A DNA stretch of 15,334 nucleotides from Spirochaetia bacterium (GTDB lineage: Bacteria; Spirochaetota; Spirochaetia; CADAEX01): NCBI GenBank assembly GCA_963662265.2, contig CAXXHA010000020.1, positions 1 through 15,334 on the forward strand, given 5' to 3'. Made by a program: the position numbers and the translations under genes. Positions 676-11,580 of this stretch are shown here, piece after piece (position 1 is the first letter of the stretch; each line of letters begins with the position of its first letter). The notes beneath the pieces were generated by a model, which was not told the DNA's origin, did no database searches, and saw only the letters and a program-made list of their open reading frames with translations.

Positions 676-3189
676 TTAATCAAGTATGTCTTCAGTTATA
701 TTATCCTCAATACTTGTATCATTTTCTATATCCGAGAGCGCCTCAAGTTCACTGATATCCTGAAGGTTAGAAAGTTCTTTTTCAAAATCATCAAGAGAAT
801 AGACATCAGTCAGGTAATTATCCTGGAGTCTCTGAATAAGTATCTCGTTTCTTTCAGACTTGAATTTATGCATTGTACAGAAGCTTCTCGGCTCTGTCCC
901 CGCTATAAACAGTTCCTTCTTGACACCGTCATCGCAGTACTCTGTCGGAAGCATTCCTGATTCCCTGCAGACAGAAAGTTCTACAAGTCCGCTGTCAGGT
1001 TTTTTGAATTCAACAGGGGGGTATTCCGGATTGTTTTCATGAATTGATTTCATGTATCTGGCCCATACAGGACCTGCAGCAGTCGCACCAGTCTGGTTAA
1101 GCCCGAGAGAATTACCAGGCATGTCAAAACCGAACCAGACAGCAGTTGTTACATAAGGGGAAAATCCGACAGTCCATGCATCAGACCAGTTCTGTGTAGT
1201 TCCTGTCTTGCCTGCAAAATTCATGGGAAAACCGCCGACTCTCCGCCTTCTGTTTGCAAGAGTACCGAAATCGACTGTGCTTTTCAAAAGGTCAACCATT
1301 ACATACGCTGCCTGGGGGGAGAGGATCTGAAGTCTTTCGCCTTCGCGCTTCTGATTTGCCCTCAGCTCTCTCTCCGGTTCAAGTATTATTTTTCCGCTTC
1401 TGTCTTCTATATATCTGATGCCTATTGGCGTAACTTCCTTGCCGCCGTTGGGGAAGGTGGCAAAAGCCCTTGCCATCTGGATAGGCGCCACGCTTATAAT
1501 ACCCAGTCCAAGGGGATATTTTCTCGGAAATGTATTTCTTATTTCCAAAGGGTCGCTTATACCCAGAAGACGTGCAGCCCTGTTTATTGCAGCATCAAAG
1601 CCTATCTTGTCGAGTACCTGAATAGAAGGCACGTTCATCGATGTTGCAAGGGCATATCTTAAAGTTACATGACCTTTCCATTCTCCCATATAGTTCTGGG
1701 GAGTGTAGGGTGTTCCGTCATCGTTCCAGAAAATAACCGGTTTGTCATATATGAGGGAAGCGGGGGTGAGAAGCTTTGAGGAAATAGCTGCAGAGTAATA
1801 GAGCGGCTTGAATGAAGAACCAGGCATGACTTTTGCCTGTACCGCCCTGTTAAGCTTCTTTGTTTCGAAGTCGCTTCCTCCAACCATGGCCTTGATATGG
1901 CCTGTCCCGTTTTCTATAGATACAAGAGCGCCTTCTACAGCTGTCTTGTGTTTTACTTTTTTCTGGATAGAATGAGAAATCTTTGAAAGATACCTGAGCT
2001 GGGATGAGTCGAAAAGAAATGCGGTTGTATTCAGAAGAGGAGTAATATATTCATTGAAAATTTCCTCTGATTCTCTTTTCTGTTTTGTTCCTGCAATCCT
2101 TATCTCTGGAAGATCAAAAAGAAGGGAAAGTGATTCAATTACTGTATAATACTCATTGTTAACATAATTCATTCTTTCTGAAACATTCTGAAGAAATCTT
2201 TTATTCATAGATGAATAGGCGCCATTCATCTGTTTTTCAGCTTCTCTCTGGTAGTTTAGGTCAAGAGTTGTATGCACAACAAGACCGTCTCTGAAATAGT
2301 CGAGTGATCCGAAAAGGGATTCCTCAAGCTGCTGCCTGATAAATTCGCTGAAATAGGGTGCTTTGTCGTTTTTAACAAGATAAGCAGTTTCAGATGATGA
2401 TCTTAACGGATCATAGGTGTTGTTCCAGTAGTCTATAAGCGATTCTTCTGCCTCTTCCCTTGTAACATACCCGAGGTCAACCATCTGGTGGAGTACTTCT
2501 GATTGTATTTTCTTTGCCCTGTTGGGATGTTTTATAGGGGAATATCTTGCCGGGTTTGCAAGCTGGATTACGAGAAGGCATGATTCCGCTACTGTCATTT
2601 CCCTTGCAGAGTGCTTGAAATAAAACTGGGAAGCAGCCTCGACTCCGTAGGTATTGTGCCCGAAATATGATTCGTTGAGATAAAGTTCAAGAATTTCGTA
2701 CTTGCTGAGCCTTTTTTCAAGCTGCAGCGCCCACCAGAGCTCTATAAGCTTTCTTTTAAGAGTTTTCAGTGACCTGTCGGCATAATGGCGCCCTGCAACC
2801 TGCTGGGTAATTGTACTTCCCCCAGAGACATATCTTCCAAGCAGTATGTTCCAGGCAGCCCTGGCTGTCCCCTTGAAGCTGAAACCGCCGTGTTTGAAGA
2901 AATCCCTGTCTTCACGTGTTATGAGTGCATTTATAAGATGCTTGGGAAGTTCATTTATAGGTATAATTTCCCTTTTTTCATCGGAGAAAAACTCAGTTAT
3001 AAGCTCCCCGTTGATATCCAGTATCTGTGACGGAAGGGACGGTTTATAGTCCCCGATCCTGTTTGTATTTGATATATTCCTTGTTTCAGCCATTATCATG
3101 CCGAAGACTGAACCTATTAAAACTGCAATAATTATTGAAACAGCTAAAAAAACTTTTACAAGTATTAATTGTTTTTTAGTAAAAATCAT
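676..3189 (-). CDS. mrcA: Class A penicillin-binding protein (PBP1A family; transglycosylase + transpeptidase)
   Basis: N-terminal TM helix. GT51 motifs REDRDFFKHGG, GGSTITQQVA, RKLIE, ILELYLN. Transpeptidase motifs SxxK (SSFK), SxN (SMN), KTG (KTGT). Acidic C-terminal tail. Confidence 0.95.
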   Translation of the reverse strand: MIFTKKQLILVKVFLAVSIIIAVLIGSVFGMIMAETRNISNTNRIGDYKPSLPSQILDINGELITEFFSDEKREIIPINELPKHLINALITREDRDFFKHGGFSFKGTARAAWNILLGRYVSGGSTITQQVAGRHYADRSLKTLKRKLIELWWALQLEKRLSKYEILELYLNESYFGHNTYGVEAASQFYFKHSAREMTVAESCLLVIQLANPARYSPIKHPNRAKKIQSEVLHQMVDLGYVTREEAEESLIDYWNNTYDPLRSSSETAYLVKNDKAPYFSEFIRQQLEESLFGSLDYFRDGLVVHTTLDLNYQREAEKQMNGAYSSMNKRFLQNVSERMNYVNNEYYTVIESLSLLFDLPEIRIAGTKQKRESEEIFNEYITPLLNTTAFLFDSSQLRYLSKISHSIQKKVKHKTAVEGALVSIENGTGHIKAMVGGSDFETKKLNRAVQAKVMPGSSFKPLYYSAAISSKLLTPASLIYDKPVIFWNDDGTPYTPQNYMGEWKGHVTLRYALATSMNVPSIQVLDKIGFDAAINRAARLLGISDPLEIRNTFPRKYPLGLGIISVAPIQMARAFATFPNGGKEVTPIGIRYIEDRSGKIILEPERELRANQKREGERLQILSPQAAYVMVDLLKSTVDFGTLANRRRRVGGFPMNFAGKTGTTQNWSDAWTVGFSPYVTTAVWFGFDMPGNSLGLNQTGATAAGPVWARYMKSIHENNPEYPPVEFKKPDSGLVELSVCRESGMLPTEYCDDGVKKELFIAGTEPRSFCTMHKFKSERNEILIQRLQDNYLTDVYSLDDFEKELSNLQDISELEALSDIENDTSIEDNITEDILD

Positions 3190-3195
3190 ATGAAT

Positions 3196-3224
3196 AAAGT
3201 ATGTAGTGTCAGGCTCTTTGTCAA
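3196..3224 (-). promoter_or_regulatory. Sigma70-type promoter of the PBP1A gene
   Basis: Minus strand reads TTGACA (3224-3219), 17-nt spacer, TACTTT (3201-3196). The -10 ends 6 nt before the ATG at 3189. Confidence 0.65.
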
Positions 3225-3381
3225 GGTCATGAAATTAAAATTATATTCAAGATTTAAAGACTTTTTAACAGCAGTTTGAATGAAAATCAGGCTTAATGCA
3301 TCATATTATCTGTCACCTGTGCAGGGTACCGGGGCTGCAGGTATTATTATACCCTTAAGGAAAGGTTAATTACGTATCAGC

Positions 3382-3412
3382 AAAAAAATAGGCCGGTCCA
3401 AAAGAACCGGCC
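3382..3412 (-). terminator. Rho-independent terminator
   Basis: Minus strand GGCCGGUUC-UUUU-GGACCGGCC (9-bp GC-rich stem with one U.G pair) followed by UAUUUUUUU. Confidence 0.85.
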
Positions 3413-3470
3413 ACCTCGAGGTGCCGAATAATATAGTTAACTGGGAGGGGAACTATATTATCACGACACT
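3382..3470 (-). ncRNA. Candidate ~90-nt small RNA with an anti-SD (CCCCUCCC) loop; I cannot assign a family
   Basis: 5'-GUGUCG-UG-AUAAUAUAGUU[CCCCUCCCAGUU]AACUAUAUUAU-U-CGGCAC stem-loop, then a terminator. The G.U wobbles form only on the minus strand. A promoter-like element lies immediately upstream and there is no ORF. Confidence 0.55.
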
Positions 3471-3474
3471 TTTA

Positions 3475-3501
3475 TTATCGACAATTAGTATAAAAGTTTA
3501 A
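3475..3501 (-). promoter_or_regulatory. Putative sigma28 (FliA)-type promoter for the candidate sRNA
   Basis: Minus strand (T)TAAA...GTCGATAA versus consensus TAAA-N15-GCCGATAA. Spacer is 14 nt from TAAA or 15 nt from TTAA. The -10 ends 5 nt before the base of the stem. A sigma70 TATACT at 3492-3487 is an alternative. Confidence 0.4.
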
Positions 3502-3560
3502 CAAAATCTTATAAATATTTCGTTAAATTATCAAAAATTAAGAATAAATAAATATTGCTG

Positions 3561-4553
3561 CTATTCCTCTTTGACTTCTATGTCAAGAAGAAGGTTAATA
3601 ACGTAATTTTTCCCCTCTTCAAGCTCAATAGTCCTGCTCAGGCTGTAATTCCCCAGTTTGAAAAGAACAGTGTGTTCCCCCGGTTCAAGAGTGCTTATTT
3701 TTCTTGAATTCTGAATATTGCCGTCAATATAAAGTTCTGATTCGTCAGGCGAATATATAGACACAACAGGGTTGTTTTTCTTCAGGAGGATTTCAACATT
3801 TCTTGTCTCATTTGTTTTTACAGTAATGTTTTCATTATGTTCCGAATAACCCTTTTTGGACACAGTTACTTTATGTATGCCTGATGTGAGTAATATGTTA
3901 TCCGCTTTACTATGTGAATTCCCGTCAATTGAAAGTGAAAAATCTTCTGTGTTTTCCGGATTATTGTCATTGCTTCCGGGAACAAGTACTTTTACATTGA
4001 TCTTTCCCTGTTCAGGCCAGTAGGTTTTTATCTTTATTTTGTATTTTTCAGATAAAAGATAATCAGGAACACCCTTCATTACAGGCAGTATTGTAAACAT
4101 AAGAGGTTTACTGTCTTTTAAATTTGTGAGATCGATAACTTCAGTTCCAGGCATTGAAGAATCAGATGATTTACTTCTGCTGAACTTCAGATCTATAAAG
4201 AAACGTGTCCTGTCGGGTAAAAGAACTGATTTTGAATATTTTCCATGATAGCTTTTTATGTCGTATGATGGCTGAGGAGAAACATTTGTATAGGAATATA
4301 AGGAAAAACTGTCTCTGAAACGTTTAATTGTCTCTGAACTTCTTATTTCTATTGATATTTTATCCGGAAGGTTTGAGTAGTCAGGTGAAACAGCAAAAAT
4401 TTCCTCGGGAGAAATGTCAAATTCAGTTGCTTTCCTGTCTGCTGACAGTATTTCCGCATCCAGAATATTAACGAGAGGTCCCCTTATGTTATCTGCATGA
4501 GATAAAACAGTGCTGAAAAGTATAAAAATAACTGCTAATTTAGATTTTTTCAT
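3561..4553 (-). CDS. Exported PEGA-domain protein
   Basis: Signal peptide MKKSKLAVIFILFSTVLSHA. Two C-terminal PEGA-like repeats (SIDGN...LTSGIHKVTVSKKGYSE; LYIDGN...LEPGEHTVLFKLGNY). Starts 5 nt after the upstream stop. Confidence 0.8.
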   Translation of the reverse strand: MKKSKLAVIFILFSTVLSHADNIRGPLVNILDAEILSADRKATEFDISPEEIFAVSPDYSNLPDKISIEIRSSETIKRFRDSFSLYSYTNVSPQPSYDIKSYHGKYSKSVLLPDRTRFFIDLKFSRSKSSDSSMPGTEVIDLTNLKDSKPLMFTILPVMKGVPDYLLSEKYKIKIKTYWPEQGKINVKVLVPGSNDNNPENTEDFSLSIDGNSHSKADNILLTSGIHKVTVSKKGYSEHNENITVKTNETRNVEILLKKNNPVVSIYSPDESELYIDGNIQNSRKISTLEPGEHTVLFKLGNYSLSRTIELEEGKNYVINLLLDIEVKEE

Positions 4554-4558
4554 CTGAT

Positions 4559-5443
4559 TTATTTCTTTCCCCGTATATATTTTAATGGGTCCTGAGATTC
4601 ACCTTTTTTCCTGATCTCAAAATGAAGATGAGGACCGGTTGAATATCCTGTATTACCAACTTTACCAATAACATTTCCGGTTCTGATTGATGAATTCAAT
4701 AATACTAGAGTTTTACTCAGATGTCCATATATTGAATAGAAACCTCCGCTGTGCTCAATAAAAATGAAATTTCCAAGCACAGGATCATAACCGGTGTTGC
4801 TTACAACTCCTGAAGCTGATGCAAAAACATCAGTACCTACAGGGGCAGCAATATCAATCCCGTTGTGAAAAGAGAGCTTCCCGGTAAAAGGGTGGGGCCT
4901 GTTGCCGTAAAACGAAGTTATTTTCCCCCTATCAATGGGATAACGGAAAAAAGTGTTCAGAAAAAGCGATCTTTCAGTGCTGTTGAGCCTGCCGTCCTTT
5001 ATCATGAAGAATACTGATTTCTTACTGCTGCTGTTTATATAGATTTTTTTTCCTTTCAGTTTACGTGATGAAAGAAACAGTTCAAGATCATTATTTGCGT
5101 TATCAGGTATGAAAATCGCCGGCTGGTTCGGAACAAGTACTTTATTGAGGTTTAAAAAATCTGCCGGCTTATTTATCCTGTTAAGTGTTGCAATAGTACC
5201 GTAGGGCAGGTTGACTCTTGAAGAAAAATGGAACAGGTCTTCATCTTTCCTGCTGTAGACAGCAAGCATGAGGGGAAGATCGTATCTCTCTGATGCCGAG
5301 TGTTGATAGGACAGATCTATGTCGCTTGAAATCTGCCTGAATATAACATCGTTTCTGTTCAGGGAAATGATTTCCGGGTAATCAGAAAATAAAACGGGGC
5401 AGGATGATATAAAAAGAAGTATTAAAGATAATCTTTTTTTCAT
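4559..5443 (-). CDS. Exported M23-family peptidoglycan endopeptidase with a degenerate LysM-like region
   Basis: True start is likely ATG 5443 (MKKRLSLILLF signal peptide; ATGA overlap with the upstream stop), not 5731. Zn ligands HxxxD (HNGID) and HxH (GPHLHFE) are intact, plus YGHL. Confidence 0.9.
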   Translation of the reverse strand: MKKRLSLILLFISSCPVLFSDYPEIISLNRNDVIFRQISSDIDLSYQHSASERYDLPLMLAVYSRKDEDLFHFSSRVNLPYGTIATLNRINKPADFLNLNKVLVPNQPAIFIPDNANNDLELFLSSRKLKGKKIYINSSSKKSVFFMIKDGRLNSTERSLFLNTFFRYPIDRGKITSFYGNRPHPFTGKLSFHNGIDIAAPVGTDVFASASGVVSNTGYDPVLGNFIFIEHSGGFYSIYGHLSKTLVLLNSSIRTGNVIGKVGNTGYSTGPHLHFEIRKKGESQDPLKYIRGKK

Positions 5444-5847
5444 TTCCCCTTTTTTTTCTTCAGCCAGCTGATAAGTCCTGCTGTAAGAAACAGAACTGTC
5501 ATTATAACAGAACCCTGGAAAATGAGTGAGTTCATGTAAAGAATTACAACTGCGGATGCTCCTAAAAGCATTGCTGCCAGGTAAAAAATCCTGGCAATGG
5601 CAGATAATACAGATTTTACCGACAGCTGTTTTCTGTAGAGTTTTAATCCTGTGGAATAAAGGATATAAAAAACTGCTCCCAGGGCAATAGATATTGTGTA
5701 AACAGACGGGTATTTTGCAGCCAGGTACCATACCGGGAATACAATTACAAGTCCTGTTAAAATTACTGCAGCAGCAGCTGCTGCAATATACAGAAGCTTT
5801 CTGAGCATGCTTAAATAAACTGTTGTAATTCCTGCACTGTTATTCAT
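5440..5847 (-). CDS. Small integral membrane protein (about 4 TM helices), unknown function
   Basis: Likely start ATG 5847 (MNNSAG...), overlapping the TPR gene stop by 8 nt. Four hydrophobic stretches and a lysine-rich C-terminus. Coupled to both neighbours. Confidence 0.75.
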   Translation of the reverse strand: MNNSAGITTVYLSMLRKLLYIAAAAAAVILTGLVIVFPVWYLAAKYPSVYTISIALGAVFYILYSTGLKLYRKQLSVKSVLSAIARIFYLAAMLLGASAVVILYMNSLIFQGSVIMTVLFLTAGLISWLKKKKGK

Positions 5848-6790
5848 TTTCTTTAATATCTCCCGCATCCCTGTAGTTTTCAAGAGCTGATGAGAAATAG
5901 GCGGAATCTTTCTCCCTTCCAAGTGTTGCTGCTGTTTCAGATAGTTTTCCGAGAAGTTCTTTTATCTCCGGTTTATTTTTGAGAACATCGAAAACCATGT
6001 AGGACTTGAGGTAATAACCGTATGCTGTTTCAAGGTTCCCTTTTTTCTCATTGACTATTCCGAGCGCCTTGAAATCCTTTCCTATACCGAAGCTGTTTTC
6101 GACGATTTTATCCTCTTCAAGAGCTTTCAGAAGAAAACTTTCCGCATTGTCATAGTTTTTATTTTTGGAATAAACAGATGCACTCATGTAGTAATTTGCA
6201 GCAAGTTCTGCATGTTTTTTTTCTGCCTGGTTGATTTTGGCGGAATGACTGAAACGGGAGAGAGCTTTTGTATAATCACCGTCTTTTTTATAGGCAATAC
6301 CCATATTATGAAGAATAACTGCAGCTTCGAGTGAATCTGTACCTGCTGAGGCAAATGCCTTTTCAAGCATTTCTGATGCTTTTTTATATTCCCCTGTCCT
6401 TATGTAGAGTTCTCCGAGGTTGTTTGAAGAAACTGTTCTGAGTTTAGTATCATTCAGTTTTTCAGATATGCTTAAAGCCTGAAGAAAATATTTTTCAGCA
6501 GATTCCGTATCATCAAGGTTAAGGCTGGATTTGCCGGCAGAGTTGCATGACATTGCAATACCCGGTTCATTATCAGATGCAATGTTTTCATCAAGGGCAA
6601 GCTTGAAAAATACAAGAGCCTGGTCATATTTCCCTTCAGCATAGTAGTTGTTGCCGAAATCTGTAAGCTCGGCAGCTTTGTTTTTCCTGGAATTGACAAC
6701 ATCTGTCTCCTTTGGAGCAGATGAGCATGAAAACATCAGAAGAAAAGCTGATAAAATTAAAATAAAATGTTTAATGTGCTGTTTTAACAT
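5840..6790 (-). CDS. Tetratricopeptide-repeat lipoprotein
   Basis: Lipoprotein signal ending LLMFS-C. Repeated TPR helices (GNNYYAEGKYDQALVFFKLAL; NNLGELYIRTGEYKKASEMLEKA; HNMGIAYKKDGDYTKAL). Start overlaps the mlaD stop (TAATG). Confidence 0.88.
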   Translation of the reverse strand: MLKQHIKHFILILSAFLLMFSCSSAPKETDVVNSRKNKAAELTDFGNNYYAEGKYDQALVFFKLALDENIASDNEPGIAMSCNSAGKSSLNLDDTESAEKYFLQALSISEKLNDTKLRTVSSNNLGELYIRTGEYKKASEMLEKAFASAGTDSLEAAVILHNMGIAYKKDGDYTKALSRFSHSAKINQAEKKHAELAANYYMSASVYSKNKNYDNAESFLLKALEEDKIVENSFGIGKDFKALGIVNEKKGNLETAYGYYLKSYMVFDVLKNKPEIKELLGKLSETAATLGREKDSAYFSSALENYRDAGDIKENE

Positions 6791-7836
6791 TAGAAGTCCT
6801 CATCTCTGTAGTTGTTGAATGTGTTGTCCTGCCCCTGAAGTTCAGTTATGCCTCCCTTAAGGAGAGGATTATTTTTCAGTCCTTCAAGAACTGCTTTCCC
6901 TTCCTTGAGAGCGCCCCTGCTTTCTTCCAGCACACCTGTTATCTGCGGCGTACTGTCATTCAGGTAAGCAGTAAAAGTGTTCAGTTCCTGCGTCATCTTA
7001 TCAAGATTTGCAAGAATCGAGTTCAAGTTATTGTATAATTCCCTGTTGTCGTTAAAAAGAGCTGCAGCAGAACCGTCTTCTCCCATTAACCTGGGAATAA
7101 GTCCATCCGGATTTGCAGTCAGTGTATTTACATTGCCTGTAATACCTTCGAAGTTATCCAGAAGAACATTTATCCTGTTTGTAGTTTCTGCAATAATAAT
7201 TTTTATATTTGAAGTCATTGATGCAACATTGTCTATAGTATCGCCTACAGGACCTTCCAGTTCCCCCCTGAGAGCAGTGTTGACTGTATTGCTGAGTTCG
7301 TTGAAAGATGCAAGAACCAGGTTGACGTTTGCAAGAATAGGATCAATCTGGTTTATAATCCTTGTAACAGTGTTTTCCCCCTGTGGAATATCAACAACTC
7401 CCTTTTTTATAAGCTCCCTTGCTTCTTCAAGGTTGTAGGAGGGGATAAAGCTGTTTTCCTCGAGAGGATCTCCTATAAAGTTACCCGGATGAATAACAAG
7501 TTCGCTTCCGATACCTATAGGGCTTATAACGTGCTGGATTATTGAGTTTGGCTTAATTTTCTCATAGAATTTTTCATAGATATAGAACTCCACTTCAACA
7601 TTATTGTCTTCGGTAAGGTTGATTTTCTTGATCTGTCCGATTTCAAATCCTTTCAGTTTAATGGGTTTCCCTATGTTCAGCTGTTCTGCAGAAAGAAAAC
7701 GGGTATTGAAATAATAGTTTTTCTGAAACCATCTCTGGTTGATCCCCATGAAAATCAGGAGAACAGAAAGGCAGAATACTGCCAGGATGGAGAAAATACC
7801 CACTATCTGATCCGCATACTGAATTTTAAATTTCAT
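6790..7836 (-). CDS. mlaD: MlaD/MCE-domain protein with a long helical C-terminal region
   Basis: N-terminal TM. MCE motif (AEQLNIGKPIKLKGFEIGQIKKINL...VEFYI). Long coiled/helical region ending NNPLLKGG. Adjacent to mlaE- and mlaF-like genes. Confidence 0.85.
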   Translation of the reverse strand: MKFKIQYADQIVGIFSILAVFCLSVLLIFMGINQRWFQKNYYFNTRFLSAEQLNIGKPIKLKGFEIGQIKKINLTEDNNVEVEFYIYEKFYEKIKPNSIIQHVISPIGIGSELVIHPGNFIGDPLEENSFIPSYNLEEARELIKKGVVDIPQGENTVTRIINQIDPILANVNLVLASFNELSNTVNTALRGELEGPVGDTIDNVASMTSNIKIIIAETTNRINVLLDNFEGITGNVNTLTANPDGLIPRLMGEDGSAAALFNDNRELYNNLNSILANLDKMTQELNTFTAYLNDSTPQITGVLEESRGALKEGKAVLEGLKNNPLLKGGITELQGQDNTFNNYRDEDF

Positions 7837-7859
7837 ATTTAATTAGCCCTCATTTTATT

Positions 7860-8672
7860 CTACTCGAAATCAGGTGATATCAGATTCAGAATATCATCAT
7901 CAAAATTTGATACTTTATCAATAACATTTGCAAGAATGTTTCTGATATTTTTATCGCCGGATTTAACTATATCATTGTATCTTCCTGACGCATAAATTTT
8001 ATGATCCTTAAGCAATATGAGATTATCTGCAAGCATTGATGTTATTTCAGGATCATATGTACAGATTATAAGTGTTTTATCTTCAGATTTCAGGTCTTTT
8101 ATTATGGATCTGATTTTTGCAGCAGTTTCAAAATCAAGAGCTGACAGGGGATTGTCAATAAATATAATTTCGGGATCTGTTATCAGTGCACGGGCAAAAG
8201 AGACAAGCTTCCTGTTACCTGATGAAATCTGGGAAGGTCTTTTGGAAAGATTTTCATTTAAACCCAGTTTTCTGCACATCCTGTTTATTTTCACCTCAAT
8301 TACATCTTTATCAAGCTCGGGGTAGTGGTACTGAAGAGGAAGTTCAAGGTTCTGAAAAAGGTTTTTATTTGCCCACAAAGCGCTGTCCTGAAAAATAAAA
8401 CCGTTTCTCTTCCTGAAATTCCTGACTTTGCTGAAAGACATTATGTTGAAGTTGTTCCCTTCTATATACAGCTTGCCGGAGTCTGCAGGAAGAATACCGG
8501 AAAGCACCTTTAAGAGTGTGCTTTTCCCGCTTCCGAGGGAACCTGTAATAACAGTTGTTGTATTTTTCTGTATAGAGACAGATACATTGTCGAGAATTGT
8601 TATACCGCTTTTTGAAAGGGTAACATCCCTGAGTTCCAGTACTGTATTGTTATCTGTATTTACACTGCACAT
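7860..8672 (-). CDS. mlaF: MlaF-like ABC ATP-binding protein with degenerate catalytic motifs
   Basis: Walker A GSLGSGKST and Q-loop GFIFQD are present. Signature is ISSGNRK, Walker B is IIFIDN, H-loop position is CTYD. Lies between mlaE and mlaD. Confidence 0.82.
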   Translation of the reverse strand: MCSVNTDNNTVLELRDVTLSKSGITILDNVSVSIQKNTTTVITGSLGSGKSTLLKVLSGILPADSGKLYIEGNNFNIMSFSKVRNFRKRNGFIFQDSALWANKNLFQNLELPLQYHYPELDKDVIEVKINRMCRKLGLNENLSKRPSQISSGNRKLVSFARALITDPEIIFIDNPLSALDFETAAKIRSIIKDLKSEDKTLIICTYDPEITSMLADNLILLKDHKIYASGRYNDIVKSGDKNIRNILANVIDKVSNFDDDILNLISPDFE

Positions 8673-8675
8673 ATA

Positions 8676-9467
8676 TCAGAACCACAGGTAATTTATCGTT
8701 ACTATTATTGCATCGGCAAGTATACAGAGAATAAATCCCTGTCCTACAGATTTTATTACAACCACAGGTATTTCTGTAGTAGATCCTTCAACCTTGAAAC
8801 CATTATATGTAGCAACAATGGAAATTATCATTCCGAATACAATACTCTTGAATATTGAGGAAAAAATAACAACTGGCTTGAGTACAAGAAGCAGGTTTCT
8901 GAAATACTCAAGAAAAGTTACCTGTTTTATAATCTGGGATATGAAATAGGAGCCTATAAGGCCGGAAATATTGAAATAGAGGTTTAGAATAACAAGAGAA
9001 ATTGTTACCCCGAGGAATCTAGGTACAACAAGATAAGATACTGGGTCTATTCCTGTTGCAATATAAGCCTCAATTTCATGAGAAACAACCATGTTTCCAA
9101 GCTCTGTCGATATAGCTGTCGCTGACCGGGCTATAATGATAAAAGCGGTGAGAAGGGGGCCGAGTTCCTTTGTAATTACAACTACAAGAATTTTGTAGAT
9201 AAGATCACCCTGGCCGAACTGGGGAAGCAGGGTCAGCCCCTGTATAATAATTACTACACCAAGAGCAATACCGATAAGGCTTATAATACTAAGTGCTTCA
9301 AAACCTGTGAAAAGGATCTGCATTACCAGTACTTTATAACCGATATGTTTCTGCTTTATAAAAAAAAAAGATTCGCGGATTGTTTTCAGGAAAAAACCTG
9401 AAGCATAAGCTAATTCTTTTATACTGTTAAGTATGTTACTGCCGATTCGATTTATTGAATTTACCAT
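8676..9467 (-). CDS. mlaE: MlaE-family ABC permease
   Basis: Motifs KELGPLLTAFIIIARSATAISTELGNMVVSHEIEAY and GIDPVSYLVVPRF. Multiple TMs; 263 aa. Confidence 0.92.
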   Translation of the reverse strand: MVNSINRIGSNILNSIKELAYASGFFLKTIRESFFFIKQKHIGYKVLVMQILFTGFEALSIISLIGIALGVVIIIQGLTLLPQFGQGDLIYKILVVVITKELGPLLTAFIIIARSATAISTELGNMVVSHEIEAYIATGIDPVSYLVVPRFLGVTISLVILNLYFNISGLIGSYFISQIIKQVTFLEYFRNLLLVLKPVVIFSSIFKSIVFGMIISIVATYNGFKVEGSTTEIPVVVIKSVGQGFILCILADAIIVTINYLWF

Positions 9468-10947: not shown

Positions 10948-11580
10948 ATGGATTTTTCGCAGTTTGACAGGTTTAAAGTTACATTTCAGAAAGGTGATCT
11001 TATATTTTGTGAATATGAACCAGGCGATACATTCTACCTGATACAGTCTGGAAGGGTTCAGATTGTAAAAATAATGGGTGATATAGAAAAAATTATAGAT
11101 ATACTCCACCCTGGTGAAATATTCGGCGAAATGGCTATTCTAGAGGAAGCACCACGTTCAGCCAGCGCACTTGCAATAGAGACTGTTGAGGCTCTGGAGT
11201 TTAACAAGAAAAACTTTGAAATACTCTTAAGGGGTAATCCCCATATATCATCGACAATACTCCAGACATTTATCAAGAGAATATATGACCAGAAAAGAAG
11301 ATTCATGATACTAACGCTTAAGGAACCTGCTGCAAAAGTTGCCGATGTATTTCTAATGCTTTCAGAAACTCAAGCCTCAGACAGCACATCGCCTACAGAA
11401 AGGATTATTGAAACCAGCGTGGATGATATAGCCCACTGGTGCGGAATGACCCCCCAGGAATGCGGACAGATTGTTGAGCATTTTGTGAACCAGAGAAAGA
11501 TCGAGATGGATTCAAATCATATTATTGTCAAGAATATCAATGATTTCAGAAGGTTTGTGAATTCAAGACGTAAGCAGTAG
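10948..11580 (+). CDS. Crp/Fnr-family transcriptional regulator
   Basis: cNMP-binding domain with a canonical phosphate-binding cassette FGEMAILEEAPRSASA. C-terminal HTH-like segment (SVDDIAHWCGMTPQECGQIVEHF). RBS GGAGGGG at 10932-10938. Abuts the upstream stop. Confidence 0.88.
   Translation: MDFSQFDRFKVTFQKGDLIFCEYEPGDTFYLIQSGRVQIVKIMGDIEKIIDILHPGEIFGEMAILEEAPRSASALAIETVEALEFNKKNFEILLRGNPHISSTILQTFIKRIYDQKRRFMILTLKEPAAKVADVFLMLSETQASDSTSPTERIIETSVDDIAHWCGMTPQECGQIVEHFVNQRKIEMDSNHIIVKNINDFRRFVNSRRKQ

Follow-up and report, generated by a model that had tools for sequence, protein, structure and literature searches.

The window analysed here, a 15,334-nucleotide stretch of DNA from a Spirochaetia bacterium, carries a PEGA-domain gene and a PBP1A gene separated by a gap of 371 nt. 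The gap holds a compact unit, read on the minus strand, which an initial annotation made from the letters alone described as a candidate undescribed sigma28-dependent small RNA with an anti-Shine-Dalgarno loop. This raises the questions of whether an RNA gene is present and of what such an RNA might act on. Judged from the sequence comparisons below, the ~90-nt RNA gene is real, previously undescribed and conserved in many spirochaetes. With moderate confidence, we read it as a free-standing, sigma28-dependent, trans-acting RNA that would occlude the translation starts of fliF, fliO, fliP and ftsZ, providing negative feedback on flagellar assembly and a link to cell division. Coordinates of the locus and its neighbours are collected in the table.

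Table. Features of the small-RNA locus and its flanking genes (positions are those of the window; - is the minus strand).
Feature	Position	Strand	Basis or remark
PBP1A gene (transglycosylase + transpeptidase), class A PBP	676..3189	-	Pfam
PBP1A promoter (TTGACA 3224-3219; ATG 3189)	3189..3224	-	Sequence; outside the small RNA
Predicted small RNA, about 88-90 nt	3382..3471	-	Covariance-model match G000:C20:3382-3471, 83.4 bits
Intrinsic terminator	3382..3412	-	Terminator scan
Hairpin P1, about 18 bp	3421..3469	-	Fold and compensatory changes
Seed UUCCCCUCCCAGUU (apical loop plus two closing U's)	3439..3452	-	Invariant core UUCCCCUCCCA in alignment
Sigma28-type -10 box GTCGATAA	3475..3482	-	Sequence
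Sigma28-type -35 box TAAA	3497..3500	-	Sequence
Alternative -35 reading TTAA	3501-3498	-	Gives the consensus N15 spacing
PEGA-domain gene, last of the Mla-like/TPR/M23 operon	3561..4553	-	Pfam

Promoter, stem, 12-nt loop and terminator all lie on the minus strand where the initial annotation had placed them. The TAAA-led promoter boxes also stand, with a minor correction: the spacer between TAAA and the -10 box is 14 nt, and the N15 spacing of the family fits TTAA. The stem starts 5 nt after the -10 box. Placed from the promoter position, the 5' end would be at about 3470-3468; the 3' end would fall within the U-tract. At the base of P1, GUGUCG (3469-3464) pairs with CGGCAC (3426-3421); further up, AUAAUAUAGUU pairs with AACUAUAUUAU, and the loop is CCCCUCCCAGUU (3450-3439, minus strand). 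Most of the seed has a predicted unpaired probability of 0.8-0.99. The terminator consists of GGCCGGUUC-UUUU-GGACCGGCC (3412-3391) and the U-tract UAUUUUUUU (3390-3382); it is the sole terminator-like site in the scanned region 3000-3800.

For the minus-strand RNA, the folding energy is -37.4 kcal/mol (z = -6.3), a value equalled by none of 200 shuffled sequences. The plus strand folds at -32.9 kcal/mol and its stem has no U-tract behind it. Each stem has one U.G pair, feasible on the minus strand only, as had been claimed. The gene occurs in a single copy in the 3.77-Mb assembly. On the RNA strand, GGA occurs once, in the variable terminator arm, and is not conserved. A CsrA-sequestering RNA was considered and rejected, as multiple loop GGA motifs are absent.

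No known family accounts for this RNA. Rfam 15 gives no match at gathering score anywhere in the window, in agreement with the first impression that it is not a named family. Below threshold (E up to 10) there are only mmgR/suhB (16.7 of 41 bits), SorX (15.2 of 46.6) and three other chance-level matches.

The intergenic region is widely shared within the class. By blastn it matches 31 of 40 relatives (19/19 of the same family and 12/21 from other families of the class), and conservation peaks over the -10 box, the 5' arm and the loop. With follow-up by a covariance model built from 113 sequences, 33 of the 40 class relatives carry the small RNA; that follow-up did not find it in G021, G023, G025, G031, G033, G037 and G038. 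Among 150 other genomes sampled evenly over the phylum, the model matches 30. These include 13/14 genomes of family f32 and 6/10 of f23; in the same scan, f33 (0/16), f38 (0/15) and f36 (0/6) have no match. Family f46 scored 0/7 under the strict filters of this large scan, and a short form was later found there.

An exact-pattern scan of contigs from one genome per species returned at least 113 Spirochaetota loci. The 80 record titles among the matches listed are Spirochaet-, Treponema, Sediminispirochaeta or Alkalispirochaeta, with the exception of one cave MAG labelled Borreliella. A common build is seen throughout 133 motif-bearing loci among the matches listed. CGA(T/A/C)A stands at the expected distance in 130 of these 133 (110 CGATAA, 13 CGATAT), and the other three end at contig edges. 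The terminator is recognised in 113 unique sequences; seven loci fail the terminator rule, of which two are truncated, one contains Ns and four have the stem with a poorer U-tract. Five non-spirochaete matches of the short pattern are chance matches, none of them matched by the covariance model. Treponema putidum ATCC 700334 is a named carrier, and the motif is also present in the record of Alkalispirochaeta alkalica DSM 8900. The reduced 1.14-Mb genome G141 retains the small RNA 36 nt upstream of PBP1A.

Base pairing is maintained across this distribution. In a structure-fitted alignment of 94 distinct sequences, a fitting which itself favours the tested structure, standard pairs fill 94.4% of cells, compared with 21-45% in controls whose partners were slid 1-3 columns out of register. 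Twenty of 21 pairs are altered on both sides, and covariation scores 0.513 versus at most 0.10 in the slid controls; none of 500 shuffles reaches the observed values. All nine terminator pairs are altered on both sides (96.5% paired). An independent MAFFT/RNAalifold run finds compensatory changes at 16 of the 21 pairs. At the P1 base, G.U or U.G pairs occur in 23, 22 and 12 sequences; these are feasible on the minus strand alone. Loss of the C-rich loop or of stem covariation in relatives would have counted against the initial annotation; the loop does not vary and the stems show covariation, in different families and classes alike.

Two structural variants indicate which part of the RNA is constant. 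Family f23 has an entirely different upper stem (GGCGGAUGG/CCAUCCGCC), with pairing kept and UUCCCCUCCCA still in the loop. The short form in f46 keeps the promoter, a single-stranded AUUUCCCCUCCCAGUUUUU at the 5' end and the terminator; P1 is gone. The constant feature is therefore the C-rich stretch, not the hairpin.

These variants also bear on a different kind of function, in which the RNA is a protein-binding sponge or scaffold, the C-rich loop is recognised by a protein and the G-rich gene starts described below are unrelated strong Shine-Dalgarno sequences. The 11-nt loop is invariant across classes, beyond what is seen in most small-RNA seeds, and the P1 base (UGUCGG/CCGACA) is conserved in sequence as well as in pairing; both would suit such a role. 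It is nevertheless quite improbable: the f46 form drops P1 yet retains the seed, f23 replaces the P1 sequence, the RNA strand lacks GGA motifs suited to CsrA, and extended complementarity in four gene families goes along with presence of the RNA.

Sigma28 (FliA) promoters have a recognisable geometry, and the homologues of this RNA share it. Anchored on CGATAA, 122 unique homologues have C, G, A, T, A and A at 100, 100, 100, 94, 100 and 90%. G occurs at -2 from CGATAA in 77%, and T, A and A at -21, -20 and -19 from its C in 76, 85 and 91%; neighbouring positions carry nearly no information. The consensus TAA(A)-N15-G-N-CGATAA, with a spacer of about N15-N16, is that of sigma28. TAAA-N15-GCCGATAA-like boxes stand at the right spacing, the window itself having TAAA-N14 or TTAA-N15.

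In the window's genome, the motif is found in relaxed form immediately ahead of fliD, flgM, flgB, a FlgG-like rod gene and motB, and also within the fliJ region; the rod-gene promoter recurs at 14 of 26 orthologous loci. In T. denticola, flaB2 has a mapped promoter with TTAA and CCGATAA boxes and reported FliA binding, according to the available part of that study (PMC9481697). The sigma28-like promoter of the initial annotation is thus borne out by the geometry of the 122 homologues, the motif at late flagellar genes and, within that part of the source, the T. denticola promoter. FliA is encoded in the window's genome (298.8 bits, G000:C11:58495-59169). It is found in 149 of 151 phylum genomes and so does not separate carriers of the small RNA from non-carriers. 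This promoter pattern suggests that the small RNA is transcribed and that its transcription depends on FliA.

Could the unit be no gene at all, only the terminator or 3' UTR of the PEGA operon with a promoter-like sequence by chance? The window does place it behind the PEGA gene, on the same strand and 60 nt past the stop codon, and many relatives have a PEGA stop codon that overlaps the -35 box of the small RNA. Against this, the promoter boxes keep a fixed spacing in 122 unique homologues, P1 covaries, and the unit persists at loci with a different upstream gene or with one on the opposite strand. In genus g3 (nine genomes), the intact gene, with promoter and terminator, sits between two opposite-strand ORFs; in one of these genomes (G004) it is 73 kb from PBP1A. 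The small RNA, free-standing in genus g3, is thus not a 3' UTR, and not a PBP1A leader either. A mere 3' UTR, the outcome that would have undone the initial annotation, is very improbable.

The neighbourhood itself is partly conserved. By tblastn, a PEGA gene lies upstream at 14 of 48 homologous loci. PBP1A lies downstream on the same strand at 34 of the 48, other classes included. The upstream operon in the window (3561-9467, minus strand) has genes for proteins resembling MlaE, MlaF and MlaD and for a TPR protein, an M23 peptidase and the PEGA protein.

PBP1A has a promoter of its own, placed after the terminator. Its ATG lies about 6 nt past the -10 region, which implies a leaderless mRNA. 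This layout recurs across the class as cTTGACaaa-N14-TAnnnT with an ATG 5-9 nt on and no Shine-Dalgarno sequence; loci showing it include L003-L020, L137, L142 and L161. PBP1A of family f32 differs, with cTTGACtttt and a leader of ~50-60 nt.

A cis leader or attenuator of PBP1A was rejected, as PBP1A has its own promoter, adjacency is limited to 34 of 48 loci and the two genes are 73 kb apart in G004. A looser cis element may be envisaged, in which sigma28 transcription ending at the terminator modulates the PBP1A promoter by occlusion, insulation from the upstream operon or a U-tract acting like an UP element, or in which it reads through and makes PBP1A expression sigma28-dependent. The same-strand adjacency speaks for this, as does the position of the cTTGAC -35 box within a few bases of the U-tract in many relatives. 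In the window, however, 166 nt separate the terminator from the PBP1A -35 box. PBP1A has a conserved promoter and a leaderless start in the class, its 5' region and mRNA hold no conserved complement of the loop, the genus g3 gene is fully conserved far from PBP1A and between opposite-strand genes, and occlusion needs no invariant 11-nt loop. We regard this cis role as unlikely. The frequent adjacency is not accounted for by the trans-acting model, and may reflect a rival or additional role.

In T. pallidum, minus-strand coverage of the PBP1A/M23 intergenic region is low, with a mean of 18.8, a median of 5 and a third quartile of 39, compared with 192 for PBP1A, in the available sections of PMC12223175. 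The same sections do not call the intergenic region a transcript, and describe a library that loses RNAs of tRNA size (PMC12223175), so the low coverage is not decisive against a small RNA.

If the RNA acts in trans through its loop, its targets are expected to carry the complement. In the window's own genome, the loop complements G-rich start sites of the form (A)(A)CUGGG(A/G)GGGGA(A/C)-AUG at fliF, fliO, fliP and ftsZ. A small genome (G010) gave the first pointer: there, a 12-nt perfect complement, CUGGGAGGGGAA, lies on the GTG start of FliO. In the window's genome, both strands (7.5 Mb) hold five sites only with fourteen contiguous pairs, G.U allowed: the gene's own antisense, the fliO start, the ftsZ start and two sites of intragenic look on contig C1. 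The fliF start region has 13 contiguous pairs with the loop. When duplexes are ranked over 15,912 candidate starts, fliO (-27.9), ftsZ (-26.4) and fliF (-26.1 kcal/mol) are the top three; fliP is 6th, a FliI-like ORF 9th and an MraY-like ORF 11th. These six belong to one dcw-plus-flagellar cluster on contig C11. The anti-Shine-Dalgarno loop of the initial annotation has thereby gained conserved candidate targets, by predicted pairing.

The flanks of the target sites (5' CU and 3' GGAA) match the RNA loop; the anti-Shine-Dalgarno tail of 16S rRNA presumably does not match them. The central A/G variation of the target motif fits pairing with the 16S tail equally well as pairing with the RNA. The G-rich start regions could be strong Shine-Dalgarno sequences selected for other reasons.

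First scans of the window's own genome, for exact GGAGGG or perfect 8-15-mers, gave no clear target. This is explained by the G that the true sites carry at loop-U wobble positions. The 8-mer GGGAGGGG is no commoner than its reversed control, and counts of the perfect 11-mer TGGGAGGGGAA in 40 relatives are near control level; several non-self matches of the 11-mer are the start sites of fliO, fliF or ftsZ.

Other candidate targets were rejected. In flaB, fliD, flgM, flgB, motB and the csrA/fliW/flgK/flgL region there are only 6-bp matches. The rod gene has GGGAGGGG as its Shine-Dalgarno sequence in the window's genome, and across 25 orthologues the extended match is not maintained. Among genes neighbouring the small RNA, nothing was found as a loop target past a Crp-like gene.

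That gene encodes a Crp-like cNMP-binding regulator (10948-11580, plus strand). Its Shine-Dalgarno sequence CUGGAGGGGAAUG forms a loop duplex of about -19.9 to -22 kcal/mol and ranks about 22nd of 15,912. A 9-nt complement of the loop, CCCCGGGAGGGGAGUG, occurs four times in the assembly in 23S rRNA (contigs C24 and C32); it sits in a self-paired hairpin and is probably irrelevant.

The predicted sites recur in relatives. For fliO, 30 loci from 40 relatives and the window's genome were compared, with energies calculated against the 15-nt loop. The motif is present in 27 of the 30, counts which are not independent samples as the relatives share kinship, with duplexes of -20.5 or lower; in 26 of these the site directly adjoins an in-frame start codon. 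The motif is missed at a contig-edge locus, in a 58%-complete genome and in G021 (-12.3), which lacks the small RNA. For fliP, at least nine contiguous pairs at the start codon are seen at 17 of 30 loci. The fliF duplex is -19.0 or lower in 29/29 RNA-bearing genomes, and in G034 it is a 15-nt perfect match (-31.2). G023, the sole RNA-lacking genome analysed for fliF, has an ordinary Shine-Dalgarno sequence, GGGAGGUGAAC, whose energy of -19.8 does not separate it from the carriers.

The ftsZ duplex is -19.5 or lower in 24 of 25 RNA-bearing class genomes, the exception being G029 (-17.5); five class relatives that lack the RNA have -9.1, -9.3, -9.3, -9.6 and -14.9. Four of these five also have no FliO, FliF or rod-gene matches and are probably aflagellate. 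Overall, the ftsZ motif is absent in eight of nine RNA-lacking genomes.

Beyond the class, the carriers G062 (-22.0), G050 (-24.5), G141 (-24.2) and G047 (-20.9) and the f46 short-form genome (-21.5) have strong ftsZ duplexes, and the non-carriers G051 (-9.5), G048 (-4.5) and G053 (-7.2) do not; the carrier G055, of family f23, has -16.1 only. Eight of ten phylum genomes outside the class agree with the pattern of RNA and motif. An exception is G042 (family f27), which has G-rich ftsZ (-19.1) and fliP (-16.5) starts and in which no small RNA was found; covariance-model matches in f27 are bare terminators. A pattern match, L366, was considered as a divergent f27 RNA and rejected, as it resembles an opposite-strand start site. 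For fliP and fliO, the pattern beyond the class is the same, with the same f27 exception. Family f23 keeps the small RNA and has a weak or absent fliO/fliP motif; in G055, fliO has a 9-bp cognate duplex in a shifted register, an anecdotal case.

The features expected of a trans-acting small RNA are found together at this locus: a promoter and Rho-independent terminator of its own, independence from neighbouring genes, an accessible conserved seed and conserved start sites in trans. On the model that we favour, activation of sigma28 late in flagellar assembly would switch the RNA on. Through its exposed loop, it would pair with the Shine-Dalgarno and start regions of fliF, encoding the MS ring, and of fliO and fliP, encoding the export gate; it would also pair with ftsZ, probably with fliI and possibly with mraY. 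The pairing spans about -14 to -1, so ribosome binding should be blocked. Finished flagella would thereby stop the initiation of new basal bodies, and FtsZ synthesis would be damped, tying flagellation to division. Pairing in vivo, and repression as its outcome, are suggested by the sequences. A fuller version is more tentative and may well fall short: a late-sigma checkpoint that turns off fliF, fliO, fliP and fliI, fixes flagellar number per cell end and tunes FtsZ and perhaps MraY, with seed and motif that would have evolved together across classes and been lost jointly in aflagellate lineages.

The sign of regulation might also be the opposite. The same RNA and the same pairing could relieve inhibitory structure, such as that of G8-G10 tracts, or stabilise the mRNAs, boosting FliF, FliO, FliP and FtsZ. 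The complementary sites would be identical, nothing in the sequence fixes the sign, and sigma28-dependent small RNAs of E. coli reportedly have positive as well as negative effects. The duplex covers the Shine-Dalgarno sequence and reaches the start codon, which is the classic geometry of occlusion, and activation or protection is an unlikely outcome.

RNAs with C-rich seeds that occlude G-rich Shine-Dalgarno sequences include RsaE/RoxS, S. aureus RNAIII and H. pylori RepG. The spirochaete RNA shares with these, and with alpha-proteobacterial mmgR/suhB (RF00519), an unpaired C-rich anti-Shine-Dalgarno loop and a compact hairpin plus terminator. It differs from them in having one seed and in its promoter class and regulon, and its mmgR score is 16.7 bits against 41. 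DicF, another point of comparison, is said to pair with the ribosome-binding region of ftsZ and to control division. It is a small RNA of E. coli, as outlined in the accessible part of PMC5069750. The spirochaete RNA is likewise predicted to pair at the ribosome-binding region of ftsZ. DicF, however, is prophage-encoded, confined to enterobacteria, not driven by sigma28 and without homology to the spirochaete RNA, whose ftsZ site is shared with flagellar genes.

The FliA-dependent flagellar small RNAs of E. coli reportedly comprise FliX, MotR, UhpU and FlgO. In the available parts of the sources, a FliA-dependent flagellar small RNA is described for C. jejuni (CJnc170/FlmR; PMC11187230) and sigma28-dependent small RNAs for E. 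coli (PMC10578931). The spirochaete RNA resembles CJnc170/FlmR and FliX, MotR, UhpU and FlgO in late-class transcription and base-pairing feedback on flagella, both here predicted. In contrast to them, it has no homology in sequence or structure (no Rfam match), it is predicted to act on ftsZ and on the structural and export genes that come first in assembly, and both its seed and its target sites are maintained from class to class within the phylum. The E. coli RNAs are derived from UTRs, whereas the spirochaete RNA is a free-standing gene. As far as the alignments go, the unusual trait is the depth of joint conservation of seed and target sites.

In the open-access literature, no spirochaete sigma28 small RNA and no description of this sequence was found; the available portions of PMC5737381, PMC8632094 and PMC8551640 mention nothing resembling it. 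The number of periplasmic flagella, and the timing of new-pole assembly with division, are open questions in spirochaetes. To our knowledge, almost no regulatory RNAs have been characterised in spirochaetes beyond Borrelia and Leptospira. The present finding supplies a conserved RNA, an 11-14-nt seed, a promoter class and the candidate targets fliF, fliO, fliP and ftsZ, which makes the hypothesis directly testable in cultivable species. Since the RNA is retained in the reduced genome G141 and in Treponema putidum, it is probably relevant to host-associated treponemes. It merits an Rfam family, an annotation gain for hundreds of spirochaete genomes and MAGs.

Several other features were seen in these genomes. 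In G022, G024, G027, G030, G036 and G040, the small RNA lies ~6-10 kb from flgF/flgG-like rod genes. The dcw (ftsZ) cluster is directly upstream of the flagellar superoperon in several families. G8-G10 tracts stand right before the ftsZ, fliF, FliI-like, fliO, fliP and MraY-like starts in the window's genome (contig C11, ~18-62 kb); such tracts at start codons could allow replication slippage and phase variation. Finally, five genus g3 genomes (G007, G012, G014, G016 and G017) have one in-frame TGA within the FliO match (e.g. L263, L267, L268 and L272), which could be due to a split gene, a sequencing artefact or recoding.
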